From sequence record MH675927.1: a stretch of 64,000 nucleotides of DNA. One strand, written 5' to 3'. Of this stretch, positions 29,572 to 64,000 are shown piece after piece (the stretch's first letter is position 1; each line of letters begins with the position of its first letter). The DNA is from Escherichia phage vB_vPM_PD114. The notes under the pieces were generated by a model, which was not told the origin of the DNA, searched no databases, and saw nothing but the letters and a program-made list of their open reading frames with translations. The translations under genes and the position numbers were made by a program.

Positions 29572-29589
29572 TCTTTTCTCCTCTTTAAT

Positions 29590-29608
29590 GCGGAGGACAA
29601 TCCTCCGC
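29590..29608 (-). other. intergenic stem-loop (GCGGAGGA-CAA-TCCTCCGC)
   Basis: 8-bp GC stem immediately upstream of the TerC RBS. Confidence 0.3.
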
Positions 29609-29648
29609 TCTATGTCGTATACTATAAACTGTTTTTAAAGAAAGTCAA

Positions 29649-52416: not shown

Positions 52417-52634
52417 TATTTTGAAAATTTTTATTTTTATAAAAAGGGGTGTGGGTTTCATGTACGGAAATCCACCCTCTGAATAATATATCCAGAGTAA
52501 GTAGTATTCTGTACTCTGTTAATAAAGTATTTAATTTGTTTGTTGGACTATGATATCTGATCTTTAAAAGGCATACTATCTCTTAACTACTACTTATAAC
52601 AAAACAGTAAAATCCTTTTTATAAAAAGTACAAA

Positions 52635-52840
52635 ATTATTTAAAGTTTTTACAGATTTTCGGGTACAAATTTTGAAAATGAAAAGTTCAAGTTTGGTCAA
52701 AATTATTTAAAGTTTTTGTACGTATTTCTATCCAGATTTTGAAAATGAAAACTTCAATTTTTTAAAAATTCCCCAGTTTATTTAAAGTTTTTTTGCCTTT
52801 TTCCGTAGAAAAATCAAAAATGAAAAGTTCAATTTCGTGT
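52635..52840. repeat. three tandem direct repeats of about 66-76 bp
   Basis: Each unit has TTATTTAAAGTTTTT (52635, 52701, 52777) and TTTTGAAAATGAAAAGTTCAA (52671, 52737, 52811). Confidence 0.7.
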
Positions 52841-52855
52841 TTTTATAGGTGTGTT

Positions 52856-52967
52856 AATGAGAATCATTTTCGTTTGTAAATGAGAATCATTATCATTTAA
52901 CTATGTAAGTGATAATCATTCTCAGTAAGAGAATGAGAATCATTAGCAAATGAGAATTTTTCTCATT
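52856..52967. promoter_or_regulatory. cluster of Fur-box-like palindromic sites (AATGAGAATCATT family)
   Basis: At least five copies; AATGAGAATCATTATC (52879-52894) matches 15/16 positions of the E. coli Fur consensus; perfect palindrome AATGAGAA-TTT-TTCTCATT at 52948-52966. Confidence 0.45.
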
Positions 52968-53229
52968 TACAGAATAACGCGCAGGGGCGGTGTTTGTCTC
53001 GCGCTCCCGTGTCCCCTCGCCATACAATAAGAATAGCATAACCAACAACAAAAGCAAGCGATTATTTTTATCTTTACATTTCTTTACAAATTTATTTTAG
53101 ACGAGCTACCGGCGATCAACCTTCCAACCAGTGCCCCCTGGTATGTTAGCCCCGCCTTTACGCCGTGGGGGTGGCGTTTCCTCTTCTGTATGTAAAACAG
53201 TATAAGCCCGATCCCTGGGCTTGTCAAGA

Positions 53230-53496
53230 TTATTTTTTGTTTTCTTGCCAGGATAGGACACCTAACCAAAAATACATGTCGCCCCGCGCCCCTGGTGGGA
53301 TCTTGCTTTCCCCGCCGCCACTGCAAGCCCATAGATAACCATTTACGAACGTATCAAAGTGATCTATCTCTTCCACCTTATGATCGCCCAGGTTGAGAAC
53401 GGTTTCAACCTTTAAGCCCGTTGCGCTTGCTACCTGGTGCACCGTGCCGCCTTGCCAGCCCAGTGAGTGCATGAGATGTAAAGGAGTATTTGTCAT
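53230..53496 (-). CDS. hypothetical protein in a G+C-rich island
   Basis: 88-aa ORF with RBS AAAGGG; region is visibly more G+C-rich than its surroundings; no motif recognised. Confidence 0.35.
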   Translation of the reverse strand: MTNTPLHLMHSLGWQGGTVHQVASATGLKVETVLNLGDHKVEEIDHFDTFVNGYLWACSGGGESKIPPGARGDMYFWLGVLSWQENKK

Positions 53497-53607
53497 GGTA
53501 TCGCCCTTTCTTTGTTGTGCGCCCTGGTTGGCGCGGTAGAAAGATGATAGCCGTTTCCTTTATAGATAGCAAGCAAAAAAGAAATGAAAAAAGATTAAAA
53601 AAAATGG

Positions 53608-53636
53608 TTGACGTTCCTCACCTGGTAGCGTAGTAT
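53608..53636 (+). promoter_or_regulatory. sigma70-like promoter (TTGACG-17-TAGTAT), first of the rightward early-gene array
   Basis: Near-consensus hexamers with 17-bp spacer about 130 nt upstream of 53765. Confidence 0.5.
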
Positions 53637-53764
53637 TCATCTTGTCGAGGGGCGGCAAGGCACAACGACAATAAACAATAGGCGGGTGCAATGCAAGACG
53701 GGCAAAGGTGAGGATCTCCACAATCCACCGTCACAATAACATTACTTATAAAAGGTTGATAACA

Positions 53765-53869
53765 ATGATCAAGAAAGAAAATAGCTTGACGGTTGGAACG
53801 ATTAACGCTATCATTCTTGCCGTTCCCTTTTGGATTGTAGTGTCAGTTATTATTTCAATCATTCTATAA
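53765..53869 (+). CDS. small membrane peptide (34 aa; not in ORF track)
   Basis: ATG with AAAGG RBS; hydrophobic. Confidence 0.3.
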   Translation: MIKKENSLTVGTINAIILAVPFWIVVSVIISIIL

Positions 53870-53879
53870 GGCGCACACT

Positions 53880-54161
53880 ATGAGCAAGGTAATTAGTCAT
53901 AAAGAGTTAAGCCCTACTCTTTCAATGAGTGAGTGCACCGATGGCTTTTGGCTGTATGATGATACGCGCGGCATGAATTTAGCTATGCGTGAAAAAACAG
54001 AAGAGGCGGCGTATATTGAAGCCCTGGAATACTACCAGGAACGACTAAAGGAAGTAGAAAACAATTATAATAACCTAAAAACAAAGGTAGATCATTTTAT
54101 CAGCCAGGTGGCAGATGACGACGATGATCACTATTGCGAGCGGTGCGGATCATACAGCTAA
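53880..54161 (+). CDS. hypothetical protein
   Basis: 93 aa; acidic DDDDD tract and C-terminal CERCG. Confidence 0.45.
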   Translation: MSKVISHKELSPTLSMSECTDGFWLYDDTRGMNLAMREKTEEAAYIEALEYYQERLKEVENNYNNLKTKVDHFISQVADDDDDHYCERCGSYS

Positions 54162-54181
54162 AATTATTTTTAAAAATATTC

Positions 54182-54242
54182 TTGACAACGTTTTTTAAAC
54201 TGATAAGATGTATCACATAGGGCGGCGGAATACTTCCCCGCC
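54182..54242 (+). promoter_or_regulatory. sigma70 promoter (TTGACA-16-TAAGAT, extended TG) plus GC-rich leader hairpin
   Basis: TTGACA 54182-54187, TAAGAT 54204-54209, hairpin GGGCGGCGGAATACTTCCCCGCC 54220-54242, then RBS and ATG 54265; 40-nt promoter sequence repeated at 56520. Confidence 0.6.
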
Positions 54243-54264
54243 AAAACAAAAAAAGGGTAATGCA

Positions 54265-54627
54265 ATGAGCAAGCAAATCAATACTATCATGTTTAATCTG
54301 GTATCTTTCCGCGACGATATGAAAAATTTACCACGTGAAACGGTTGATATTCATGTTTCAGCTTATCGCGCCCTTATTGATATGTTACCGCTAAAACGTG
54401 ATCAACATGCCGCTAATATGATGCTTAATGCTATGCTTAAAAAGATGATTCAAACGGATCTCACCCTGGCGTATGAGTATCAAGGGCGCTTATATGCAAC
54501 TTACAACAAGGCGGTACCTGGTCTGGGAAGTACCGAAGAGTTGCACGGCTTAAACCTGGATCAAAACACTTGGGATAGTATGCGCCGCGTTATGGTATGG
54601 GCCGAAAGCGGTAAAATTTACGAATAA
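54265..54627 (+). CDS. hypothetical protein
   Basis: Start at ATG 54265 (RBS AAGGG) downstream of promoter and hairpin; the longer track ORF begins inside the promoter. Confidence 0.5.
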   Translation: MSKQINTIMFNLVSFRDDMKNLPRETVDIHVSAYRALIDMLPLKRDQHAANMMLNAMLKKMIQTDLTLAYEYQGRLYATYNKAVPGLGSTEELHGLNLDQNTWDSMRRVMVWAESGKIYE

Positions 54628-54633
54628 AAACGG

Positions 54634-54686
54634 TTGACATTGCACTAAAACCTGATAAGCTATCTTAAAGCGGGAACTATTCCCGC
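54634..54686 (+). promoter_or_regulatory. sigma70 promoter (TTGACA-16-TAAGCT) plus leader hairpin GCGGGAA-CTA-TTCCCGC
   Basis: TTGACA 54634-54639; hairpin 54670-54686. Confidence 0.55.
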
Positions 54687-54705
54687 TTACATAGGATAAA
54701 ACTTT

Positions 54706-54852
54706 ATGAAACAATATGTAATGAGTATTCATACCAAAAACGGCGCTACTGTTACGACTCCGGCACGGTTTGCACTTGTAAACCGTTGCAACAGACTAAA
54801 ACGAGAGCTAAAAAATAACCGTGCAACGGGCTTTAAACGCTGGGGAGGATAA
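54706..54852 (+). CDS. small hypothetical basic protein (48 aa; not in ORF track)
   Basis: ATG 54706 after promoter and hairpin; stop 2 nt before the next gene start. Confidence 0.35.
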   Translation: MKQYVMSIHTKNGATVTTPARFALVNRCNRLKRELKNNRATGFKRWGG

Positions 54853-54854
54853 TC

Positions 54855-55115
54855 TTGTTTTTTCTAAAAGTTTTTGATAATGTGATCGCTTTTGAACATG
54901 CTACAACGTTCGACCTGGCGAGATATGCTATCAGGTTTAAAGATAATGTTTATCCCCGTGCTGGCGGCGGTTACACTATTTTTAATCATCGCAACGCGCA
55001 ACTGACTGATGTAACTAATCCAGATCCTGGAGTGTATCGGATAGGCTGGCTACCGTCAAAAGACGCTGCAAGCATGTTTAAGGTATGTAAACTACTAACA
55101 GAAGAGGCGAACTAG
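54855..55115 (+). CDS. hypothetical protein
   Basis: TTG start with RBS GGAGGAT; 86 aa. Confidence 0.45.
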   Translation: MFFLKVFDNVIAFEHATTFDLARYAIRFKDNVYPRAGGGYTIFNHRNAQLTDVTNPDPGVYRIGWLPSKDAASMFKVCKLLTEEAN

Positions 55116-55116
55116 C

Positions 55117-55671
55117 ATGGGGCGTGAATATGTGATCCAGTCCTGGGTAAAGCATGACGCAAATGATCCGCGCATAATACCAGATGACATGATCGATCAC
55201 ATGGTAGGGTATAGCGGGGAGCAGATAGGAAATCGAGCGGCAAAGAGCAACGGCAATACCAGGACGAGATCCGTTCGCCCTGGATGGCTGGCGAATGGTA
55301 ACGCTGACATTGCAAGCGCCGCAGATCCAAGCGATGACGCTAAAAATAATCCCTTGTACAGCATTGATCCGGCTTTTAAGGTGTTGGAAGAGTATCCCGC
55401 TAAATTAGCCGCACTAGATAAGGCATACGCAGAAAAGCGCATGGCATGGACTGTATACAACACCGCTAAAATGGTGCTAGATGCAAAACTAATTAAAGCC
55501 CAGGAGAAGATCAATAAACTTGTTACCATAGCGCAAAAGGAAGACCAGGGCGACCAGGAGGAAGAGGAAGAAATCATGCCTATCCTGGAAGAGGAAGAGA
55601 TCCAGCCATACATGCCGACGGAAGAGGAAAAAAGACAAGCCTTAAAAAATTATGAAAATTGTGTTGTGTAA
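55117..55671 (+). CDS. hypothetical protein with acidic C-terminal tail
   Basis: 184 aa; EEEEE-rich C-terminus. Confidence 0.45.
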   Translation: MGREYVIQSWVKHDANDPRIIPDDMIDHMVGYSGEQIGNRAAKSNGNTRTRSVRPGWLANGNADIASAADPSDDAKNNPLYSIDPAFKVLEEYPAKLAALDKAYAEKRMAWTVYNTAKMVLDAKLIKAQEKINKLVTIAQKEDQGDQEEEEEIMPILEEEEIQPYMPTEEEKRQALKNYENCVV

Positions 55672-55674
55672 GGC

Positions 55675-55729
55675 TTGACATATGCAAACAAGCCCCGTAA
55701 TATATACCACATAGAGCGGGGCAACGCCT
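55675..55729 (+). promoter_or_regulatory. sigma70 promoter (TTGACA-17-TAATAT) with degenerate GC leader element
   Basis: TTGACA 55675-55680, TAATAT 55698-55703, CATAGAGCGGGGCAACGCC downstream. Confidence 0.45.
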
Positions 55730-55751
55730 CAAAGGTGAAATAAAAAATCAC

Positions 55752-55779
55752 TTGACACCTGAAATCAGTAAGCTATAAT
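55752..55779 (+). promoter_or_regulatory. consensus sigma70 promoter (TTGACA-16-TATAAT)
   Basis: Perfect -35 and -10 hexamers at 55752-55757 and 55774-55779, upstream of ATG 55817. Confidence 0.65.
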
Positions 55780-55816
55780 GCTTATATAAATTAAAGCGTT
55801 ACTAAGGAATAAAATC

Positions 55817-56182
55817 ATGGCTAAAAATATCAATGTTTCTGCTTATGCTACCCTGGCTAACACTGCTAAAATTGAACTATCCAGCATTGAAGCGGTACAT
55901 ATTAGCGCCCGTCGCTGGTTTCAAAAGTCTTATGGTAATACTTATTTCTCTTTGATGGTTGACGTTGAGATCGGCGGTAAACTGATTGAAGTCGTTAACG
56001 TTCCGTTTCAATATGGTTATGGTGATCATTTTGATACCGTTGCCCTAGAAGAGTTTAGCAAGGTTATCAACCTGGAAGGTAAAGACTTTTCAAATTATGC
56101 TTACCTTTCCCGTTTTTGCCGTGACAATGGGATCGCTGTATACAGTCATGCAAGCGATGTTAAACGTAAAAAAGATTTATAA
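55817..56182 (+). CDS. hypothetical protein
   Basis: 121 aa. Confidence 0.5.
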   Translation: MAKNINVSAYATLANTAKIELSSIEAVHISARRWFQKSYGNTYFSLMVDVEIGGKLIEVVNVPFQYGYGDHFDTVALEEFSKVINLEGKDFSNYAYLSRFCRDNGIAVYSHASDVKRKKDL

Positions 56183-56188
56183 AAAGCA

Positions 56189-56246
56189 TTGACAGCACGA
56201 ATAAAAAGCATATAATACTTATATCGAGAGCGGGAATAGTTCCCGC
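56189..56246 (+). promoter_or_regulatory. consensus sigma70 promoter (TTGACA-16-TATAAT) plus leader hairpin GCGGGAA-TAG-TTCCCGC
   Basis: TTGACA 56189-56194, TATAAT 56211-56216, hairpin 56230-56246. Confidence 0.65.
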
Positions 56247-56270
56247 CTCACTGAAAAAGAGATTAACATC

Positions 56271-56510
56271 ATGGCTAAATCTAAAATGTACAACGGTCAC
56301 AAAAATAAAACTCATTGGAATGTAAGCCTTTGGATTAATAACGATCCAGGTTTTTATAATATGGCAAAAGAATTTATAGCCGTGAACAACAATAAAGATA
56401 ACGCCGCGCGTGAAATGATGTCACTACTTAACGAAATGGGCCAAACTACTACGCCAGATGGCTATAAATTCAGTAAAACCAGTATCCGCGCCGCTATGGT
56501 AGGAATGTAA
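56271..56510 (+). CDS. hypothetical protein
   Basis: 79 aa. Confidence 0.5.
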   Translation: MAKSKMYNGHKNKTHWNVSLWINNDPGFYNMAKEFIAVNNNKDNAAREMMSLLNEMGQTTTPDGYKFSKTSIRAAMVGM

Positions 56511-56519
56511 TAAAAACAG

Positions 56520-56579
56520 TTGACAACGTTTTTTAAACTGATAAGATGTATCACATAGGGCGGGAAATGGTTTCCCGCC
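56520..56579 (+). promoter_or_regulatory. sigma70 promoter (TTGACA-16-TAAGAT) plus 21-bp palindrome GGCGGGAAATGGTTTCCCGCC
   Basis: Promoter nearly identical over 40 nt to the one at 54182; palindrome 56559-56579. Confidence 0.6.
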
Positions 56580-56601
56580 AAATCAAAGAAAGGTTAACAT
56601 T

Positions 56602-56829
56602 ATGGCTATCGTTATTGTTCGCGTATCCGGTACGGTTGGGATCTCCCAGGTAGTAGCAGTTATCACCGAGAAGAAAGGGGATGATCTTCACTCCTCTTTG
56701 AATAGCTGGGCGGTCGCTAACTTTGGGCAATGGTCGAGCGTTGAGTACATCGAAGCATACCAGGTGCCAACGATTAGCCTAACCGATCTAAATGTTGATC
56801 GCTTGTTGTGCCTGGATCAATTAAACTAA
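56602..56829 (+). CDS. hypothetical protein
   Basis: 75 aa. Confidence 0.5.
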   Translation: MAIVIVRVSGTVGISQVVAVITEKKGDDLHSSLNSWAVANFGQWSSVEYIEAYQVPTISLTDLNVDRLLCLDQLN

Positions 56830-56837
56830 AAATAATA

Positions 56838-56895
56838 TTGACAAGATAACTAAAATCAGTAAAATGTAATGCATAGGGCGGCACTATTGCCGCCC
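56838..56895 (+). promoter_or_regulatory. sigma70 promoter (TTGACA-16-TAAAAT) plus leader hairpin GGGCGGCA-CTAT-TGCCGCCC
   Basis: TTGACA 56838-56843; hairpin 56876-56895. Confidence 0.55.
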
Positions 56896-56916
56896 CTAGT
56901 GAGAGAGATTATCAAA

Positions 56917-57132
56917 ATGGCTAATATCCGCACACTGTTAAAAAATGCAAGTCAAGTTTTATTTTCAGATGACGAGTATTTCAACAAAGACATTACAGGC
57001 GTGAAAAATTTAAAAGACGTGAAGGATGTTATCGGTATCCGTGGATCTTTACGTAAAGATGACATATACGGTAACAAGGTGCAATATAAATTGTCAAAAG
57101 ATTATGATTTTACTTTGACAATTATTTCATAA
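56917..57132 (+). CDS. hypothetical protein
   Basis: Start at ATG 56917 after the leader hairpin; the longer track ORF would start inside the hairpin. Confidence 0.5.
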   Translation: MANIRTLLKNASQVLFSDDEYFNKDITGVKNLKDVKDVIGIRGSLRKDDIYGNKVQYKLSKDYDFTLTIIS

Positions 57133-57138
57133 AACTAC

Positions 57139-57199
57139 TTGCAAACCTGGTAAAATAAAGTAAACTATATTCATTAAGGCGGTAGAATAGCCCACCGCC
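57139..57199 (+). promoter_or_regulatory. sigma70-like promoter (TTGCAA-16-TAAACT) plus leader hairpin GGCGGT...ACCGCC
   Basis: TTGCAA 57139-57144; hairpin 57178-57199. Confidence 0.45.
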
Positions 57200-57222
57200 T
57201 AACAAAGAGAAGAGGAAACATC

Positions 57223-57393
57223 ATGATTACTTTCGCCACCCGTGAAGCCGCTCGCAACGTTGCACGTAAAGTTAACGCCGCCAACCTGGGCGCTACGCTT
57301 AAAGCACCGGTTAAAGATGAATCAGGAAAATGGATCTTTCCTGGTCTGCGTCACGCTGATAAGCTGGGAACATTAACGTTAAAAAATAAATAA
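57223..57393 (+). CDS. small hypothetical basic protein (56 aa; not in ORF track)
   Basis: ATG 57223 with RBS AGAGGAAA after promoter and hairpin. Confidence 0.4.
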   Translation: MITFATREAARNVARKVNAANLGATLKAPVKDESGKWIFPGLRHADKLGTLTLKNK

Positions 57394-57400
57394 TATTCGC

Positions 57401-57459
57401 TTGACAGTAGCATCATTTATAAGTAAAGTAACAACAACGGCGGGAAATGGTTTCCCGCC
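57401..57459 (+). promoter_or_regulatory. sigma70 promoter (TTGACA-17-TAAAGT) plus palindrome GGCGGGAAATGGTTTCCCGCC
   Basis: TTGACA 57401-57406; palindrome 57439-57459. Confidence 0.55.
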
Positions 57460-57479
57460 ATCAATAAAGAGATAAGATT

Positions 57480-57839
57480 ATGAAATCAGCAAAAGCAATT
57501 AAAACTTACATTTTATCGGCTATTTCTTTTGATGGTACTACAACCGAAAAAGAAAAGATCACCGAACTGATGCGCCGTTTTAACTCTGAATACTGGTATC
57601 CCGATAATCAAAAACGTTACAATCATAACATGACCAAGGCGATAGCCTCATGGTTACAAGGTTTACCGTCAGAAGTCAATATTGCTTTTGATTATAATGA
57701 GATCGATCACTTGTTAATTGAATGGAAGTGCATAAAAGAAACAAGCAAAGAAACAACCGTTACCCGTGAGCGGGAAAATTATTGGTTATATATTGCAAGC
57801 ATGATCGTAATCCTGGCAAAACAGCATAACGTGGCGTAA
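57480..57839 (+). CDS. hypothetical protein
   Basis: 119 aa. Confidence 0.5.
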   Translation: MKSAKAIKTYILSAISFDGTTTEKEKITELMRRFNSEYWYPDNQKRYNHNMTKAIASWLQGLPSEVNIAFDYNEIDHLLIEWKCIKETSKETTVTRERENYWLYIASMIVILAKQHNVA

Positions 57840-57854
57840 TTAAGAGGAAGAAAC

Positions 57855-57992
57855 ATGAACGCATCACAGCAGATCGAAAAATTCAACCGCAGCAAGGCGC
57901 GTAAAGATTGGAACGAAGAGATCACCAAAAAAGGCGATAAGCGGAACAAAACAAAAAGAGATCGCAGCACAAAAAGACACTGGAACGAATAA
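57855..57992 (+). CDS. small hypothetical basic protein (45 aa; not in ORF track)
   Basis: ATG 57855 with RBS GAGGAAG; K/R-rich; followed by a terminator. Confidence 0.35.
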   Translation: MNASQQIEKFNRSKARKDWNEEITKKGDKRNKTKRDRSTKRHWNE

Positions 57993-57994
57993 CA

Positions 57995-58021
57995 AAAAGG
58001 GCGCAATAAGCGCCCTTTTAG
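57995..58021 (+). terminator. rho-independent terminator (GGGCGC-AATA-GCGCCC)
   Basis: Hairpin with A-run before and T-run after; same hairpin at 62880. Confidence 0.7.
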
Positions 58022-58110
58022 CTTATATAGAGGCTTGTTACCCATAGGCAATGGTAACGCCAGGGCAAGCCTATAAATCAACGTTAGACGGCTTTACAGG
58101 AGCTTTAAAA

Positions 58111-58293
58111 ATGAGATTAGAAGAAATAAGCAAGGCACTAGCCCAGGGGCAAAGGTTATGCGCCCGATATCGTGATCAATATGGCTTCATAACTAGCGGC
58201 GTGATCCTGGGGATTGAAGGCAATAAAATTTTTATTGACACGTTGAAAAACGTTGTATATAGTGACAATATAATCTCAATAAAACATATATGA
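58111..58293 (+). CDS. hypothetical protein
   Basis: Start at ATG 58111 (RBS CAGGAG); 60 aa. Confidence 0.4.
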   Translation: MRLEEISKALAQGQRLCARYRDQYGFITSGVILGIEGNKIFIDTLKNVVYSDNIISIKHI

Positions 58294-58301
58294 GGCAAGA
58301 A

Positions 58302-58703
58302 ATGAAAAAATTATTGATCGCTGGTTTAATCTCTTTTGGCATGGTTGGAACATCTAGCGCGGCGATATCCTCCACAATAGCAGAATTAAGCGCCGTTGAT
58401 GCAATGGAAAACGTCATGATCATTAATAACGCGATCCCCGATGAAATCATGGAGGATTCTCACATGATCGCTTATGGTGCTGTTACACAATTAACGGCAA
58501 AAATAGATAAATCTATTGTTAATGGCTTAAATGAAGATGTACCATGTGAAATTATTACCAGTGTGCTAACGACTCAAAATTTTACGCCGTGGCTAAAAAG
58601 TATTCAAAAGGTACACAGCACCGCCGCAGATCGTAGCAATGAAAAACTAGTGTCAGCACTTGCAACGTATACCCTAGCAAAATGTACCGAAATAAAAGAT
58701 TGA
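58302..58703 (+). CDS. hypothetical secreted protein
   Basis: Signal peptide MKKLLIAGLISFGMVGTSSAA; start ATG 58302 (RBS GAGG). Confidence 0.5.
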   Translation: MKKLLIAGLISFGMVGTSSAAISSTIAELSAVDAMENVMIINNAIPDEIMEDSHMIAYGAVTQLTAKIDKSIVNGLNEDVPCEIITSVLTTQNFTPWLKSIQKVHSTAADRSNEKLVSALATYTLAKCTEIKD

Positions 58704-58728
58704 CAACATAGAAAGCACGTTATAAGAT
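58700..58728 (+). promoter_or_regulatory. sigma70 promoter (TTGACA-17-TAAGAT)
   Basis: TTGACA 58700-58705, TAAGAT 58723-58728, followed by RBS AAAGGAGA and ATG 58751. Confidence 0.55.
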
Positions 58729-58750
58729 ACACACAACAAAGGAGAACTAC

Positions 58751-59053
58751 ATGAACGGCATAGCTAAAACGTTTTTTCTTTTTTCTGGTGTAAATGATCC
58801 ATCAATAAAAGTCGATAGTGTAAAAGAAAACAACACTATCACCGCTAAATTGTTTCAAGATGAAACAAATAACGTGCTAATCATTAATCTTAAAGAAATA
58901 ACGAAAGGTTATTATACTATTGCTTACCATGCGATCTATCATGCGGGTACTAGTGAGGAAGTGCAAACAAGCAACAACGAAAGCGCGGCGCTACCTGGTG
59001 ATCTGGTGCTGGGCGTTATCAGTTTAATTGTCAATGATTTTTTTAAGGAGTAA
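58751..59053 (+). CDS. hypothetical protein
   Basis: 100 aa. Confidence 0.5.
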   Translation: MNGIAKTFFLFSGVNDPSIKVDSVKENNTITAKLFQDETNNVLIINLKEITKGYYTIAYHAIYHAGTSEEVQTSNNESAALPGDLVLGVISLIVNDFFKE

Positions 59054-59057
59054 AACC

Positions 59058-59153
59058 ATGCCCTATTTACATTTATTTTTCGGTATCTTATTGACAGGAT
59101 CTTTTTTCTTCTGTATGCTTGTTTCTATTGTAAACCACGTTTTAAGACATTAA
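59058..59153 (+). CDS. small hydrophobic peptide (31 aa; not in ORF track)
   Basis: ATG with RBS AAGGAG; single TM helix. Confidence 0.25.
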   Translation: MPYLHLFFGILLTGSFFFCMLVSIVNHVLRH

Positions 59154-59162
59154 GGAAACAGC

Positions 59163-59282
59163 ATGAAAATTATTCCCGTACAGTATAGCGTAATAAATCC
59201 AGCATATGAGGAAGGAAGGAAAACAAGCATGGTTTTATGTTGTATTGCTACTATAGCCATGTTATTATACATTGTGTTTTAA
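59163..59282 (+). CDS. small hydrophobic peptide (39 aa; not in ORF track)
   Basis: ATG with RBS AAGGAAA; C-terminal TM helix. Confidence 0.25.
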   Translation: MKIIPVQYSVINPAYEEGRKTSMVLCCIATIAMLLYIVF

Positions 59283-59311
59283 TAGGTTTTATAGTTGTAC
59301 GCTTTAAAGGC

Positions 59312-59363
59312 TTGACAATTTTTTGTTATGCTTTAAACTATATCTTGAAAACGGCAAAGGCCG
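59312..59363 (+). promoter_or_regulatory. sigma70-like promoter (TTGACA-16-TAAACT) plus short leader hairpin CGGC-AAAG-GCCG
   Basis: TTGACA 59312-59317; hairpin 59352-59363. Confidence 0.45.
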
Positions 59364-59382
59364 CAAACAAAAGGGTAAAATT

Positions 59383-59706
59383 ATGAAATCTGTGATCGGT
59401 GTTTATTTGGATAACTCTGATTTTTTCTATCATCGTGCGCGTTTCCTTGATGCGATTGAAATGATAGAATCAGGCTTTAAAGAATACCGCCTTGCACATG
59501 ATGACCTGGAAGCATTACAGGGCAATAGTGTTTTTACATTGCAAGCGAAAGCACTATGCAAAAGCCGGATCGACATTGCGAGCAAAAAGATAGAACGCGG
59601 CATGTCCTGGTTGCGCACCGCAGAAATCAACATGGGGCAATGGTACGGCGAAAACTTAGAAAATAAACGCCCTTTTGTAAATGTAGAAAATCTTAAAGAT
59701 TATTGA
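59383..59706 (+). CDS. hypothetical protein
   Basis: Start at ATG 59383 (RBS AAAAGGG); 107 aa. Confidence 0.5.
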   Translation: MKSVIGVYLDNSDFFYHRARFLDAIEMIESGFKEYRLAHDDLEALQGNSVFTLQAKALCKSRIDIASKKIERGMSWLRTAEINMGQWYGENLENKRPFVNVENLKDY

Positions 59707-59768
59707 TTGACAGCACACCTGATAAGTAATATATTGTATCTCATAGAGCGGGGAAATGGTTTCCCCGC
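59706..59768 (+). promoter_or_regulatory. sigma70 promoter (TTGACA-17-TATATT) plus leader hairpin GCGGGGAAA-TGGT-TTTCCCCGC
   Basis: TTGACA 59706-59711, TATATT 59729-59734, hairpin 59747-59768. Confidence 0.55.
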
Positions 59769-59789
59769 CTAACAGAAGAGAGAAAAATC

Positions 59790-60074
59790 ATGAAAATCAC
59801 AAAAAGCCTAACTAATTATGCAGCACGTCGCGGATTATGTTTAACCGTTGAAAACTTAGGGAAAGAAGACTTTTTGTGTTTTTGGGAGCTTGAAAATGAT
59901 TGCGAGTGGATGTTTTCTTATTCTATCTGCGAAGATCAAAACGGTTGTTTGTTAACCTGGCGCGGTAATATCTATTTACCGGAAGAAATTAAAGAAGAGT
60001 TACCAGGTACGATCATGACAGAGAGACAGCTTAAGGAAGTGATCAATTTTGTAGGGCAAAACATTAAAAAATAA
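59790..60074 (+). CDS. hypothetical protein
   Basis: 94 aa. Confidence 0.5.
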   Translation: MKITKSLTNYAARRGLCLTVENLGKEDFLCFWELENDCEWMFSYSICEDQNGCLLTWRGNIYLPEEIKEELPGTIMTERQLKEVINFVGQNIKK

Positions 60075-60075
60075 T

Positions 60076-60136
60076 TTGACAGCACGCAAACAACGTAGTA
60101 AAGTTTATTACATAGAGCGGTGGACCATTCCGCCGC
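60076..60136 (+). promoter_or_regulatory. sigma70 promoter (TTGACA-17-TAAAGT) plus leader hairpin GCGGTGGA-CCAT-TCCGCCGC
   Basis: TTGACA 60076-60081, TAAAGT 60099-60104, hairpin 60117-60136 (one mismatch in stem). Confidence 0.5.
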
Positions 60137-60159
60137 TCACAACAGAAGAGAAACAAATC

Positions 60160-60330
60160 ATGATCCCGACTATGTTTTATGTATCGCGCAAAGGTCACAA
60201 TATTTTTTGGTCTGAAGATTTAAATGAAGCCATGACGTTTGCCCGTAATCGTGTTGCTATCGGTGGCGTTAACATCACCGTAACCGATGAAAACGGCATT
60301 GAATACTATAACGGCGACGATGAAGAATAA
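60160..60330 (+). CDS. hypothetical protein
   Basis: Start at ATG 60160 after the hairpin; 56 aa. Confidence 0.45.
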   Translation: MIPTMFYVSRKGHNIFWSEDLNEAMTFARNRVAIGGVNITVTDENGIEYYNGDDEE

Positions 60331-60337
60331 TTAATGA

Positions 60338-60357
60338 GGCGGGGGAGTATTCCCGCC
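60338..60357 (+). promoter_or_regulatory. intergenic GC hairpin without an obvious promoter (GGCGGG-GGAGTATT-CCCGCC)
   Basis: Same hairpin family as the leader elements, but directly between two genes of one transcription unit. Confidence 0.4.
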
Positions 60358-60376
60358 ATTAATAAAGAGGTAAATC

Positions 60377-60652
60377 ATGAAAATATCATTGGACGTTGCA
60401 ATCAAGGCCATCGAATCCGGTTACACCCTGGTAAAAGATGATAAGGCTAAAATAGTGCATCATGTTAACAAGGAAACAGGCGAAAGCATGATCACATATA
60501 AAGCCGCCTACTTTCTCCAATCAGTAGCAGATCCGCGCGTACAACGCCAGGTTACGGCGGCTATTGCTAAAAAATTATGTGCTTTACAGGGTACAAGTTT
60601 TAACGAGATCGCCCCGTGTTTTGACTGGTCGAGCTTGAAAAAATTAGTTTGA
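60377..60652 (+). CDS. hypothetical protein
   Basis: 91 aa; RBS AAAGAGG. Confidence 0.5.
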   Translation: MKISLDVAIKAIESGYTLVKDDKAKIVHHVNKETGESMITYKAAYFLQSVADPRVQRQVTAAIAKKLCALQGTSFNEIAPCFDWSSLKKLV

Positions 60653-60710
60653 CAACAGTCAACAATCTGGTAAAGTGTACTACATAGGGCGGGGCAATAA
60701 GGCAACGCCC
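60649..60710 (+). promoter_or_regulatory. sigma70 promoter (TTGACA-16-TAAAGT) plus GC-rich leader element
   Basis: TTGACA 60649-60654, TAAAGT 60671-60676, GGGCGGGGCAATAAGGCAACGCCC 60687-60710. Confidence 0.5.
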
Positions 60711-60728
60711 ATTAATGATGGTAGAATC

Positions 60729-60833
60729 ATGTTAGAGAAAATTTTCACGGTTGTAATAGTGGGCCTGGCGTTATCGGTTGGAGTGGTTGCAACTATGGCT
60801 AATATGATCCTATCTTCCCACGGTATCGGTTAA
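60729..60833 (+). CDS. small hydrophobic peptide (34 aa; not in ORF track)
   Basis: ATG 60729; single TM helix. Confidence 0.3.
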   Translation: MLEKIFTVVIVGLALSVGVVATMANMILSSHGIG

Positions 60834-60847
60834 AAGAGAGACACAGC

Positions 60848-61234
60848 ATGAAAACAGAAATCATTATTGAAATCATCAACGGTTATAAAGAAGCCTTTAT
60901 TTTTGCTGAATCAGCAAGGGATCATGAAGGTAATTTTATTGAAAACTTAGACGATTATGATTTTTCTCCTAGCGCGGATCAACGGATCGCCCAGGATGTA
61001 ACAGCCTTTATTAATGCTAATCTTGCCGCTATCTCTGAGGCAATGAGCGACGGCGCAACAGCCAACCAGATCGGGAATGATTTACATTTTACTCGTAACG
61101 ATCATGGCGTTGGTTTTTGGGATCGCCCTGAAATATACACTACTAACACAGCAAACCGTTTAACTAATGCAGCTAAATTAATGCCATCGGTGCATGCTTA
61201 CATTGGTGAAGATAATTTGATTTATATTGAATAA
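60848..61234 (+). CDS. hypothetical protein
   Basis: 128 aa; RBS AAAGAGAGA. Confidence 0.5.
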   Translation: MKTEIIIEIINGYKEAFIFAESARDHEGNFIENLDDYDFSPSADQRIAQDVTAFINANLAAISEAMSDGATANQIGNDLHFTRNDHGVGFWDRPEIYTTNTANRLTNAAKLMPSVHAYIGEDNLIYIE

Positions 61235-61240
61235 AAAGTG

Positions 61241-61299
61241 TTGACACCGATCCCCAATATGGTATTATTTACCACGTAGGCGGGAAATGGTTTCCCGCC
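61241..61299 (+). promoter_or_regulatory. sigma70 promoter (TTGACA-16-TATTAT) plus palindrome GGCGGGAAATGGTTTCCCGCC
   Basis: TTGACA 61241-61246; palindrome 61279-61299 (third identical copy). Confidence 0.55.
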
Positions 61300-61322
61300 A
61301 GGTAATCAAAAAGGTAAATACT

Positions 61323-61712
61323 ATGCGCAACCTGGTTTCTGTTTCTAACGTTGAAAAATTCCAATCCTTGCAGGGTATCGTTAACAACGTAGCGCCTTTT
61401 TTAGTCAATGGCTTGATTGCAAAGATGAAAAATAAACATCATGCGGCATGGTCTGCTTACTGCTTTGATAATGATGAAAAAGCGGCTGAAATGATGTTAA
61501 ATATGCTGCTAGACAGTGTAGAATCATCTTTACCGGAAAACATCGCAGAAGAGATCACCTATCGTTATAATATGGCGATCACTTACCAGGAAGTAGCACA
61601 GTTTAACATGATGGATGAAGATGACCAACAGGATCAGGAAATGTTTTGGGAGTATGCTGATCGTCAATCGGCTTTTGATGAAAAATTAGCGATGTATTAT
61701 AACGAATATTAA
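61323..61712 (+). CDS. hypothetical protein
   Basis: Start at ATG 61323 (RBS AAAAAGG) after the palindrome; 129 aa. Confidence 0.5.
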   Translation: MRNLVSVSNVEKFQSLQGIVNNVAPFLVNGLIAKMKNKHHAAWSAYCFDNDEKAAEMMLNMLLDSVESSLPENIAEEITYRYNMAITYQEVAQFNMMDEDDQQDQEMFWEYADRQSAFDEKLAMYYNEY

Positions 61713-61724
61713 TACACGGTAAAA

Positions 61725-61754
61725 GAAAGGGGCGCACTAAGCGCCCTTTTTTGT
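61725..61754 (+). terminator. rho-independent terminator (GGGGCGC-ACTA-AGCGCCC)
   Basis: Hairpin followed by TTTTTTG. Confidence 0.7.
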
Positions 61755-62097
61755 ATTCTTTTTTCACGATAGAAACAACACGTAAAGAATAGGCGTAAAG
61801 GTGGCGTAAAACCATCTAAAACCGATTGTAACCGCTTAAACAAGGTAGGGATGATTAATCACCTTACCAGGACGAAAAAGCCGTTATAAAGCTATCTAGA
61901 GCGTTTAAAGCACATAGGAAATAATTTGCTTTTTATCTTGCCTTTTATTCTGCTTTTGATTATTATTATGGAACGGGCGGCACCTGGGGACAGGGGAAGA
62001 TAATCACCGGAAGATCCCGCTATATATTGATAGCTAACATCTATCAAACAACAAAACATCAAAGGAATAAACTATCAAATCTTTACAATCTCACCTA

Positions 62098-62156
62098 TTG
62101 ACACCGGATCGCCCTTATACTAAGATGTATCACGTAGGCGGGAAGTGGTTTCCCGC
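62098..62156 (+). promoter_or_regulatory. sigma70 promoter (TTGACA-17-TAAGAT) plus leader hairpin GCGGGAA-GTGG-TTCCCGC
   Basis: TTGACA 62098-62103, TAAGAT 62121-62126, hairpin 62138-62156. Confidence 0.6.
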
Positions 62157-62175
62157 TCAATATAGGAATCATATC

Positions 62176-62406
62176 ATGATCGAACAAATTAAACGCGCTG
62201 AGGCTATTAACGGCAATGTGATCTATTCTGTCAGCAATAACGAAAAAGGCGTACCTTATGCAGCGGTGATAGTACAGCCTGACGGTGATTATTGGTTTAC
62301 TGTATACGGATCTTATTCTTTTGGGCGTCCAGTACATGATAAAATTTTGAAAGTAGCTAATCCCACCGGCAAGAATATCACAGTAGAAAAATTCTATGAA
62401 AAATAA
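62176..62406 (+). CDS. hypothetical protein
   Basis: Start at ATG 62176 after the hairpin; 76 aa. Confidence 0.5.
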   Translation: MIEQIKRAEAINGNVIYSVSNNEKGVPYAAVIVQPDGDYWFTVYGSYSFGRPVHDKILKVANPTGKNITVEKFYEK

Positions 62407-62407
62407 C

Positions 62408-62436
62408 TTGCTTTATAGCCTCTGTTAATTTATAGT
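62408..62436 (+). promoter_or_regulatory. sigma70-like promoter (TTGCTT-17-TATAGT)
   Basis: Hexamers at 62408-62413 and 62431-62436 upstream of ATG 62482. Confidence 0.45.
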
Positions 62437-62481
62437 TATCGTGTAGGGCAAGCAATTTTAAACGGTAAACGAGGAATCTCC

Positions 62482-62865
62482 ATGAGCAATATCATCAACC
62501 TGGCGGCTACTGTAAACGGTAAAGATTTTAATGGCGCTGTAGATCGTGATCCTATGTGGTGCTTATCCGTATTCAAAGGTGACTTGGTTGAAGTTAGAAC
62601 AACCGAAGGTTATAGCGACGATTATAAATGTGAGATTCATTTGCACAACTGGTACACGGGTAAAACTTATGCGCTGAATCATGCGTTTATCGGGAAAATT
62701 GAATATCGCGAGATGATCGACGAGGAAACCGGGCAAGATTTTAGCGATTATGTTTATATTCGTTCAGAAACATTAGCCGAACGTTTGATCGAGAAAATGA
62801 AAGCAAAAAATAAAATTAATTTAGCTCATTGGCTTGATATAACAAACGATCCGGCTTATAAGTAA
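62482..62865 (+). CDS. hypothetical protein
   Basis: 127 aa; RBS GAGGAA; last gene before the terminator and AT-rich region. Confidence 0.5.
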   Translation: MSNIINLAATVNGKDFNGAVDRDPMWCLSVFKGDLVEVRTTEGYSDDYKCEIHLHNWYTGKTYALNHAFIGKIEYREMIDEETGQDFSDYVYIRSETLAERLIEKMKAKNKINLAHWLDITNDPAYK

Positions 62866-62877
62866 ATAACATTTCAC

Positions 62878-62907
62878 ACAAGGGCGCAATAAGCGCCCTT
62901 TCTTTTT
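62878..62907 (+). terminator. rho-independent terminator (GGGCGC-AATA-GCGCCC)
   Basis: Same hairpin as at 57997; followed by TTTCTTTTT. Confidence 0.7.
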
Positions 62908-63111
62908 ACCTCAATAAAGATGATATCTTTTACCTATCAAAAACGTTCACCGAAAAAGTGAATAGATCGCGGTATCGAGCTAATCAAGGAGCAGATGAAC
63001 AACCATACCATGAAGATCATAAGGCGCTTACAACGTGTTTTAGACCGCTTATTTTTAATTTCTTCATGCAACTATCTGGCAAAAACAGCCTTTTTCTTGT
63101 CTTTCCTCTTA

Positions 63112-63184
63112 AATGATAATCATTCTTATTTATAGCTGATTATTTATGCAATAAACTGAATAATGTAATAATGATAATCATTCT
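63112..63184. promoter_or_regulatory. two Fur-box-like sites (AATGATAATCATTCTTA)
   Basis: ATAATGATAATCATTCT (63168-63184) matches 16/17 positions of the E. coli Fur consensus; second copy at 63112-63128. Confidence 0.45.
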
Positions 63185-63911
63185 TAACTTAAGACCATCT
63201 AACCTATAAAATAATAAGTTATCTAACTAAATTAAAACTAATTATCTCACCTTTATTTATAACTTACTGTTACTATGTCATTGATAACCTTATATTAAAC
63301 AACAATAACTAATATAAATCATTACTAAGCTAAATATAATATATCTAACCTTTAAAACTATAACTATAATCTATTGAATTATTGCACAAAGTAACTATTA
63401 AATCGTTAGTAACATTACTAAATAATTCATATCCTATCTATTTATAATCTAACCTTTATCTTCCTATCTATTACCTAAGTAATCATTTCATACAATAATT
63501 ATAACAAGAAATATAATTAGCAAGCGTATCATTAGCAGCCTATGCCGGACACATAGGCGGCTAATAATAACGCAACTACACACCTCACATAATAACCATC
63601 ACCGATAGTTATTATCTGTGCTTATGTAGCTTGCAACAACTGCAAGCGCAACAATATACATGGTATATTGTATTCCCTTACATTGTTGCGGTGCGTTATT
63701 ATTAGCTAATGTTTGGAACATTGGCTATAATATAAGCTATCCAATAATAAACATAGTGAATAATGACCCTGATGATCATAATGCGCCACCTTCCAGGGGG
63801 CGCTATGTGAACACAAAGAAATCTTTCTTGTCAAGAAAAATATTACCATTATTGCGCAAAATTATTTACATCTGAATAGATGGTTTTTCATACTATTGCC
63901 CCCAATACTAT

Positions 63912-64000
63912 CCCTATTTGTTGTTATTTGTTGGATAAAATTATCCCTATTTGTTGCAGTATAAACTATTATTTGTTGCCCTAACTATTGCTATTTGTTG
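63912..64000. repeat. iteron-like direct repeats (C)TATTTGTTG, at least five copies, running to the window edge
   Basis: CCCTATTTGTTG at 63912 and 63945; TTATTTGTTG at 63924 and 63969; CTATTTGTTG at 63991. Confidence 0.6.

Follow-up and report, generated by a model that had tools for sequence, protein, structure and literature searches.

Results

The window analysed here is a 64,000-nucleotide (nt) stretch of the genome of Escherichia phage vB_vPM_PD114 (MH675927.1), and our subject is an array of small genes on its plus strand, at positions 53608-62907, in which promoters and short GC-rich hairpins recur together as repeated units that we call cassettes. The array region matches 270 phage records, and the best matches (93-96% identity over 93-98% of its length) are all Stephanstirmvirinae of about 147 kb (Justusliebigvirus/phi92-like), AV123, inny, PD06, Paula and PaulScherrer among them. 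By this similarity, the window belongs to a Justusliebigvirus/phi92-like myophage of E. coli. A 1.35-kb piece of the region is 97.6% identical to phage pEC-M2929-1AR.1. About 10 GenBank records labelled 'Campylobacter phage' (e.g. MG065645, host C. jejuni) are also about 94% identical to the region, and their host attribution looks doubtful. There are 27 plus-strand open reading frames (ORFs) of 31-184 amino acids in the array, each with a ribosome-binding site (RBS). The original prediction, made from the letters of the sequence, described small unassigned proteins, and our searches agree: Pfam recognises DUF1033, DUF7249 and Phage_30_8 only, and PHROGs returns only 'unknown function'. The Phage_30_8 match (T4 gp30.8) is the last gene of the array, 62482-62865. 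A host-like G+C content, which had also been proposed, is not what we find (39.7% in the region against 37.6% in the rest of the window; 39.4% at third codon positions).

Candidate sigma70-like sites were scored by their matches out of 12 to the consensus, with 300 dinucleotide-preserving shuffles as the control. The plus strand of the region carries 17 sites scoring at least 10/12, where shuffles carry 2.35±1.48 (maximum 9), and six scoring at least 11/12, where 0.21 are expected; the minus strand carries one site of at least 10/12. Two of the 17 (53786 and 59091) lie inside ORFs. With three weaker intergenic sites (53608, 54634 and 57140), there are about 18 intergenic promoters for the 27 ORFs. 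The idea of an array of self-promoted small early genes is thus borne out, with the reservation that the 'several' perfect TTGACA-16-TATAAT promoters first reported come down to two (55752 and 56189).

A covariance model (R1), built from a 10-sequence ungapped seed alignment (A3), was run over the whole window with filters off. It matches 13 loci on the plus strand, all between 54.2 and 62.2 kb, and one on the minus strand (29582-29616). All 12 hairpin coordinates named in the original prediction are real hairpins. Twelve of the 13 plus-strand loci are linked to a promoter, and the hairpin at 60338-60357 is not. Minimum free energies of the hairpins lie between −12 and −19 kcal/mol, and their z-scores relative to shuffles lie between −1.5 and −6.8. 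The layout is regular. Six AT-rich nt follow the −10 element, then a conserved C(A/G)TAG, then the stem, which starts 9-13 nt past the end of the −10 element (only 6 nt in one copy); an unstructured, purine-rich leader comes next, and 17-23 nt separate the end of the stem from the ATG. Predicted 5' untranslated regions are 41-52 nt long. The original suggestion that the hairpin sits at, or very close to, the predicted 5' end of the mRNA holds. Four promoters lack a proper hairpin. The covariance models of Rfam 15 gave no relevant match across 52500-64000 at E≤1. Hairpin alignments made with MAFFT (A1 and A2) were dropped, as they set hairpins with 3-nt and 4-nt loops out of register and were useless for pair counts.

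Matches to the model comprise 124 hairpin copies (64 distinct) across 32 sources. Among the 64 distinct copies, 96.2% of stem cells are standard pairs, compared with 87.2% in shuffles, and six of the nine stem pairs show compensatory changes on both sides, values reached by none of 500 shuffles; these figures lean towards structure, since the alignment (A4) is model-fitted and the copies are related. When the 3' partner is slid by 1-3 columns, the covariation score collapses. The hairpin stem is under structural selection.

Orthologous sites show how freely one hairpin is exchanged for another. Before the gene with ATG 60160, eight phages have a nearly identical promoter and an identical leader, yet their hairpins are of four kinds: GAGCGGTGGACCATTCCGCCGCTC in the window, its exact reverse complement in ESCO13 and ZCKP1, GGGCGGGAAATGGTTTCCCGCTC in Paula, AV123 and PD06, and GGGCGGCAATAGTGCCGCTC in ALITA and PaulScherrer. 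Because four hairpins interchange at this one site, the sequence of the hairpin and its loop are free, and the hairpin itself is replaced or inverted and never lost. At 56876-56895, the hairpin reads as the exact reverse complement of GGGCGGCAATAGTGCCGCCC, the form present in the relatives, and that at 54668-54688 is the exact reverse complement of its orthologue, with a loop that is the reverse complement of Paula's. Palindrome flips (56876-56895, 54668-54688 and 60115-60138) are a recurrent type of mutation in these hairpins, and such flips indicate that palindrome inversion occurs at the level of DNA.

The array is repetitive at every scale of the cassette. In a direct-repeat analysis, promoters, CATAG-stem junctions, hairpins with their leaders and even first codons fall into families, and 54182-54225 and 56520-56563 are 100% identical over 44 nt. 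The complete genome of the close relative OP177727 contains cassettes of this design in one region of about 10 kb, plus a counterpart of the window's copy at 29648; the homologous region of eight relatives contains 10-14 cassettes in each. Cassette repetition of this kind supports the shuffling of modules within and between phage families.

We took breakpoints to be recurrent ends of blastn similarity between 53.0-63.2 kb and the eight relatives. Within cassettes, they recur at 53613-53658, 54201-54216, 54642, 56210, 56549, 57439, 59726-59735, 60358, 60665-60699, 61291 and 62138, several of them at a stem base or in a loop. Hairpin cassettes make up 10.9% of the region and contain 14 of the 34 breakpoint clusters (p=5e-6), although against intergenic DNA only the enrichment is not significant (14 of 23 breakpoints in cassettes, 45% expected, p=0.09). 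Given this result, the case for recombination relies on the anatomy of the junctions and not on the statistic. Similarity to ESCO13 and ZCKP1 begins exactly at the first base of the hairpin at 57439. Further along the array, an end of similarity to these two phages falls at 61291, beside the loop of the hairpin at 61279-61299. Two cassettes are chimeric. The window's single cassette at 60649 stands in the place of three cassettes, with two additional small genes, in OP177727, Paula, AV123 and PD06; its −10 region resembles the second of these cassettes, and its hairpin is that of the third. Likewise, ALITA has an extra 183-bp gene between two cassettes, and the window's cassette at 56189 consists of the promoter of the first and the hairpin of the second. 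At 53608-53658, a plus-strand promoter (TTGACG-17-TAGTAT, 9/12) has just the 5' half of a hairpin, GGGCGGCA, behind it; similarity to OP177727, which has the full hairpin GGGCGGCAATAGTGCCGCTC and a gene at this site, stops in the loop. One further indel has its junction away from any cassette: a gene of about 216 bp, annotated as similar to ESCO5_00006, is present in all eight relatives and absent from the window at 60833-60843.

Cassettes also occur outside this group of phages. An exact-pattern scan of IMG/VR found arrays only in phi92-like contigs of about 150 kb, and single cassettes in unrelated contigs that include a 348-kb jumbo phage and siphovirus-like contigs of about 48 kb; the pattern forces the spacing, so that these singletons are no independent evidence for it, but the complementarity of their stems was not forced. 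One pair of singletons differs by a compensatory change (GAGCGGC...GCTGCTC versus GAGGGGC...GCTCCTC). The jumbo phage UB (Asteriusvirus, 353 kb) has TTGACA-N17-TATAAT, ACTTTACATC and GAGAGCGGGAA-CTA-TTCCCGCCTC before a 71%-identical homologue of the window's gene at 56271, and this hairpin is the window's with the loop flipped. A second UB copy of the cassette precedes a homologue of the gene at 54265, and a promoter-less hairpin precedes an 82%-identical homologue of the gene at 53880. The order of these three genes in UB is unlike that in the window. The small early genes of the array, such as the DUF7249 gene and the Phage_30_8 gene, are themselves widely exchanged between phages. The DUF7249 gene (56271-56510) is also found in rV5-like phages, in Asteriusvirus jumbo phages and in the T7-like phage PGT2, which has it without the cassette.

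Individual cassettes vary in promoter strength and hairpin form; all that follow are on the plus strand unless stated. The cassette at 54182-54242 has TTGACA-16-TAAGAT, CATAG and a hairpin at 54221-54242 before ATG 54265. That at 54634-54688 has TTGACA-16-TAAGCT (9/12) and a 9-bp hairpin with loop CTA (54668-54688) before ATG 54706. At 55675-55730, TTGACA-17-TAATAT and CATAG lead into a weak, bulged hairpin (55714-55730) and no gene follows; Paula, AV123 and PaulScherrer have an extra 180-bp gene at this position. A perfect promoter without a hairpin, TTGACA-16-TATAAT at 55752-55779, precedes ATG 55817. The cassette of the DUF7249 gene (56189-56249; ATG 56271) combines the other perfect TTGACA-16-TATAAT with a hairpin at 56226-56249 (GAGaGCGGGAA-TAG-TTCCCGCCTC). 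At 56520-56579, TTGACA-16-TAAGAT, CATAG and the hairpin at 56559-56579 (GGCGGGAAA-TGG-TTTCCCGCC), which is the top match of the covariance model at 49.4 bits, precede ATG 56602. The next cassette, 56838-56895, has TTGACA-16-TAAAAT, CATAG and a hairpin with loop CTAT (56876-56895) before ATG 56917. A weak promoter, TTGCAA-16-TAAACT, marks the cassette at 57140-57200 (hairpin 57177-57200, ATG 57223), and the one at 57401-57459 has TTGACA-17-TAAAGT, a hairpin at 57439-57459 and ATG 57480.

Beyond 58 kb, the series continues with two promoters that have no hairpin, TTGACA-17-TATAGT at 58235-58263 and TTGACA-17-TAAGAT at 58700-58728 (ATG 58751), and with a third, TTGACA-16-TAAACT (59312-59363), that has only a 4-bp mini-hairpin at 59352-59363 before ATG 59383. 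Complete cassettes resume at 59707-59771, where TTGACA-17-TATATT and CATAG precede a hairpin at 59744-59771 and ATG 59790, and at 60076-60138, where TTGACA-17-TAAAGT and CATAG precede a hairpin with one U.G pair (60115-60138) and ATG 60160. The promoter-less hairpin at 60338-60357 lies 8 nt past a stop codon and 19 nt before ATG 60377, and is conserved in relatives and across the genus. The remaining cassettes are those at 60649-60710 (TTGACA-16-TAAAGT, CATAG, hairpin 60687-60710, ATG 60729), 61241-61299 (TTGACA-16-TATTAT with TG, CGTAG, hairpin 61279-61299, ATG 61323) and 62098-62157 (TTGACA-17-TAAGAT, CGTAG, hairpin 62137-62157 with an outer G.U pair, ATG 62176), the last with its breakpoint at 62138. 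A lone minus-strand cassette lies outside the array at 29582-29648 and consists of TTGACT-16-TATAGT, CATAGA, GCGGAGGA-TTG-TCCTCCGC and an RBS. It belongs to a leftward-transcribed block, and its counterpart in OP177727 precedes a gene for a 325-amino-acid 'integral membrane protein'.

Three canonical intrinsic terminators punctuate the array. The first, at 57995-58019, is bidirectional (A-tract, GGGCGC stem, T-tract; no strand assigned), the second lies at 61724-61752 (no strand assigned), and the third, at 62880-62900 on the plus strand, marks the end of the array. They are near-identical copies of a 25-nt element, AAAAGGGCGCAATAAGCGCCCTTTT (57995-58019, 61726-61750 and 62878-62902), with 92-100% identity, so that the terminators too are a repeated module. 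After the first terminator, the stretch of 58.0-59.3 kb differs in cassette style from the rest of the array in that its promoters have no hairpins; its proteins (58302, 58751, 59058 and 59163) have signal-peptide-like or hydrophobic N-termini. About 350 bp between the second terminator and the next cassette (61753-62097) contain no convincing ORF and have no Rfam match, and are conserved in relatives from about 61940. The third terminator is followed by an AT-rich, apparently non-coding stretch of about 1.1 kb (62900-64000; 29% G+C) with short direct repeats, including AATGATAATCATTCTTA twice, a ATCCCTATTTGTTG-type repeat three times and a ATCTAACCT-type repeat three times; an origin, or a packaging or terminal region, is conceivable here. 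The patch 53100-53340, at the divergent junction to the left of the array, contains several GC hairpins, and short ORFs overlap there on both strands. The patch is locally GC-rich (45% in 53-54 kb) and adjoins a leftward TTGACA-17-TATACT promoter at 53227.

Discussion

Promoter-early stem-loops (PeSLs) were described in the T4-like phages RB49/phi1, PST/T4 and nt-1/KVP40 (Arbiol et al., 2010, PMC2839356; Comeau et al., 2014, PMC4122927). They consist of a sigma70 promoter and a stem-loop, occupy hyperplastic regions of ORFan genes and mediate insertions and deletions; 'half' PeSLs have been seen, and a crossover was mapped in a loop (PMC2839356; PMC4122927). We put at a little above even the chance that the array is the hyperplastic early region of a phi92-like phage, built from repeated PeSL-type expression cassettes of about 110 bp that work and shuffle in the way set out here. 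Each cassette opens with an A-rich tract upstream of a near-consensus sigma70 promoter and has C(A/G)TAG where transcription is predicted to start; a GC-rich stem-loop comes next, then a leader of 17-23 nt that is unstructured, rich in purines and holds the RBS, and finally a small gene. Host RNA polymerase would fire all of these promoters immediately after infection, and every primary transcript would open with a hairpin. An initiating ribosome would cover the leader of about 20 nt, leaving little single-stranded 5' RNA open to RppH or RNase E. As there are only three real terminators, read-through transcripts would carry the next hairpin as an internal barrier to 3' exonucleases. A gene would in this way travel with its own promoter, mRNA end-caps and RBS, and its expression would not depend on context. 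Comparison with other phages supports the view that the repeated cassettes serve as patches of homology, at which recombination or template switching deletes, inserts and swaps modules of cassette and gene, exchanges or inverts the hairpin itself, and moves modules between unrelated phages. The hairpin's most likely roles are the capping of mRNA ends and the insulation of the RBS, with a dedicated role at the DNA level less likely.

If this proposal is true, PeSL-type mobile cassettes would not be peculiar to T4-like phages; they would be a more general means by which large virulent phages arrange and trade their early accessory genes, here in a form with the hairpin inside the transcript. Phage engineering and synthetic biology would gain a natural, portable, context-independent expression unit with a fixed order of promoter, start, hairpin, leader of about 20 nt and ATG. 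The boundaries of cassettes would moreover help to delimit and mine exchangeable early genes in hundreds of phi92/phAPEC8-like genomes and in jumbo phages; genes for host takeover and anti-defence are expected in this class.

Several observations weigh against this proposal. The promoters at 55752, 58235, 58700 and 59312 have no hairpin or only one of 4 bp, and one hairpin (60338) has no promoter. If transcription starts at the purine of CRTAG, 8 nt past the −10 element, 0-4 nt (mostly 3) are predicted to stay unpaired before the stem; a start at the usual 7-8 nt would leave 3-4 unpaired nt (AUAG/GUAG) in front of most transcripts' stems. Two or more unpaired 5' nt are required by RppH and RNase E, and three or more are preferred; a pyrimidine at position 2 is unfavourable for RppH (PMC8833179), and RNase E is able to scan beyond an orthogonal stem-loop (PMC9943677). 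Protection of the 5' end may thus be weak, because 3-4 unpaired nt are within the range that both enzymes accept, and stabilisation by the hairpin is plausible but marginal, depending on the real start site. Our literature search for start-site or transcriptome data on Stephanstirmvirinae returned none. A T4-like PeSL stem-loop terminated transcription in a reporter (PMC2839356), and the enrichment of breakpoints over other intergenic DNA is short of significance. G.U pairs and A.C mismatches, counted at 25 and 17 cells (11 and 7 in another count), reveal no clear bias to the sense strand, a test that is weak partly because the hairpins flip. Selection could therefore act on DNA rather than RNA, as flips without penalty also suggest. 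On the other hand, the fixed position of the hairpin relative to the −10 element and the ATG argues for a role in expression, although shared ancestry of the copies could also explain it.

An alternative proposal is that the palindromes are preferred sites of recombination or template switching at the DNA level, as cruciforms or single-strand hairpins perhaps recognised by a phage-encoded structure-specific enzyme, and that any effect on RNA is secondary. Exact inversions of whole hairpins and loops between orthologues, junctions that fall in the loop or at the base of the stem (53658, 57439, 60358, 61291 and 62138) and the absence of strand bias among wobble pairs all fit this idea, which Arbiol et al. 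also raised (PMC2839356). Yet ordinary replication slippage yields flips and deletions at short palindromes and repeats without a dedicated enzyme, our analysis links no recombinase to the hairpins, their constant position points to expression, and breakpoints are not significantly more frequent in cassettes than in other intergenic DNA; we consider the proposal unlikely. A bolder version, which we hold to be quite improbable, is that the hairpins could be the structure-specific recombination sites of a cassette-exchange system resembling integron attC, with modules that excise as circles and re-insert at any other hairpin. Co-infecting phi92-like, Asteriusvirus and some rV5-like phages, together with siphoviruses, would then share a pool of early genes, for example anti-defence genes. 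The junctions at stem bases and loops, the hairpin inversions and the shuffled homologues in the 353-kb jumbo phage are compatible with this picture and do not demonstrate it. A further possibility is that the hairpin has no function of its own and is a passenger of a cassette that multiplies through duplication and gene conversion. Paralogy among the cassettes is clear, and ancestry alone could account for their shared spacing. However, compensatory changes hold pairing at 96%, orthologous sites exchange one hairpin for another without decay, and the copy that lacks a promoter is conserved across the genus, all of which makes a passive element very improbable.

Two regulatory roles would place the hairpin in direct control of transcription. 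As terminators or attenuators, the hairpins would damp read-through from upstream so that each gene mainly uses its own promoter. The RB49 PeSL stem-loop did cut lacZ expression like a strong terminator (PMC2839356), and two GenBank submitters (Paula and ASO2A records) annotated the present hairpins as terminators. A Rho-independent terminator has a GC stem and then a U-tract, whereas the 10 nt past these stems contain 0-4 T (and 3-9 A), against 6-8 T at the canonical terminators 57995, 61724 and 62880. A terminator consensus scan flags one hairpin only, on the wrong strand, and a hairpin downstream of its own promoter would terminate that promoter's transcripts too. Termination is in our judgement unlikely, slightly more so than preferred recombination at the palindromes, and since the U-tract is absent, the GenBank annotations are most likely software calls. 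The inverted repeat might instead be an operator at which a dimeric phage or host repressor binds between the −10 element and the start codon and shuts off early transcription, an alternative already raised in the original prediction. Its position, about +4 to +25, is the classic place for an operator, and the outer GCGG/CCGC is nearly invariant. Palindromic operators have conserved half-sites at a fixed spacing, but here GCGG and CCGC stand 8-13 nt apart, depending on the copy, the inner stem positions show covariation instead of conservation, loops differ or flip between orthologues, one copy has no promoter at all, and four unrelated hairpins interchange at a single site. We give the operator hardly any credence. 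An antitermination hairpin of the nut/boxB type was also considered and rejected, as the loops vary (TGG, TAG, CTA, ATAG, CTAT, ACCATT and others) and invert between orthologues.

The expression cassette that we favour shares features with several known systems. Integron cassettes and their attC sites offer an analogy only: they too are small, mobile units of ORFs, delimited by imperfect palindromes with a hairpin fold, and circular intermediates have been proposed, whereas in the phage array no integrase was identified, the cassettes carry promoters and the palindromes are much shorter. The T7 gene 10 leader is a case of a stabilising stem-loop at the 5' end of an mRNA. Other cases are ompA, papA and synthetic 5' hairpins (references listed in PMC3997798). 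Like these, the phage array has a sequence-independent hairpin, predicted to lie at or near the 5' end, with a short leader behind it that a ribosome would cover; compensatory changes and four interchangeable hairpins, one of them a flip, indicate that structure and not sequence matters. A difference is that 3-4 unpaired nt are predicted here, a borderline length if RppH and RNase E are to be blocked (PMC8833179). Clusters of sigma70 promoters are also described in the rV5 and CB7 papers, which report no hairpins. In our literature search, which did not cover the phi92 genome paper, we found no description of these cassettes for the phi92-like group.

Lambdoid morons resemble the genes of the array in being self-contained extra genes with their own promoter; morons are also discussed in PMC2839356. 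The swapping and flipping of hairpins and their sharing with a jumbo phage are aspects that we did not find described for PeSLs in the literature consulted. Morons, for their part, have no conserved repeated flanking cassette and usually have a real terminator. PeSLs and the present cassettes differ in lineage (T4-like phages versus Stephanstirmvirinae), and the cassettes have no sequence homology to T4-type PeSLs. The stem-loop of the T4-type element mostly lies upstream of, within or overlapping the promoter, whereas here it is uniformly 9-13 nt past the −10 element, inside the transcript, and has no U-tract. In both, a conserved intergenic unit of about 100 bp combines a strong, near-consensus sigma70 early promoter, a stable G/C stem-loop and a Shine-Dalgarno sequence, and occurs in many copies within a hyperplastic region of small ORFans. 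Both also exhibit indels and replacements bounded by cassettes between close relatives, degraded 'half' elements and crossover in the loop; in the window, these take the form of two chimeric cassettes and one half hairpin, alongside an intergenic enrichment at p=0.09. The array is best described as a set of PeSL-type cassettes from another phage lineage, whose stem-loop lies right behind the predicted start site.

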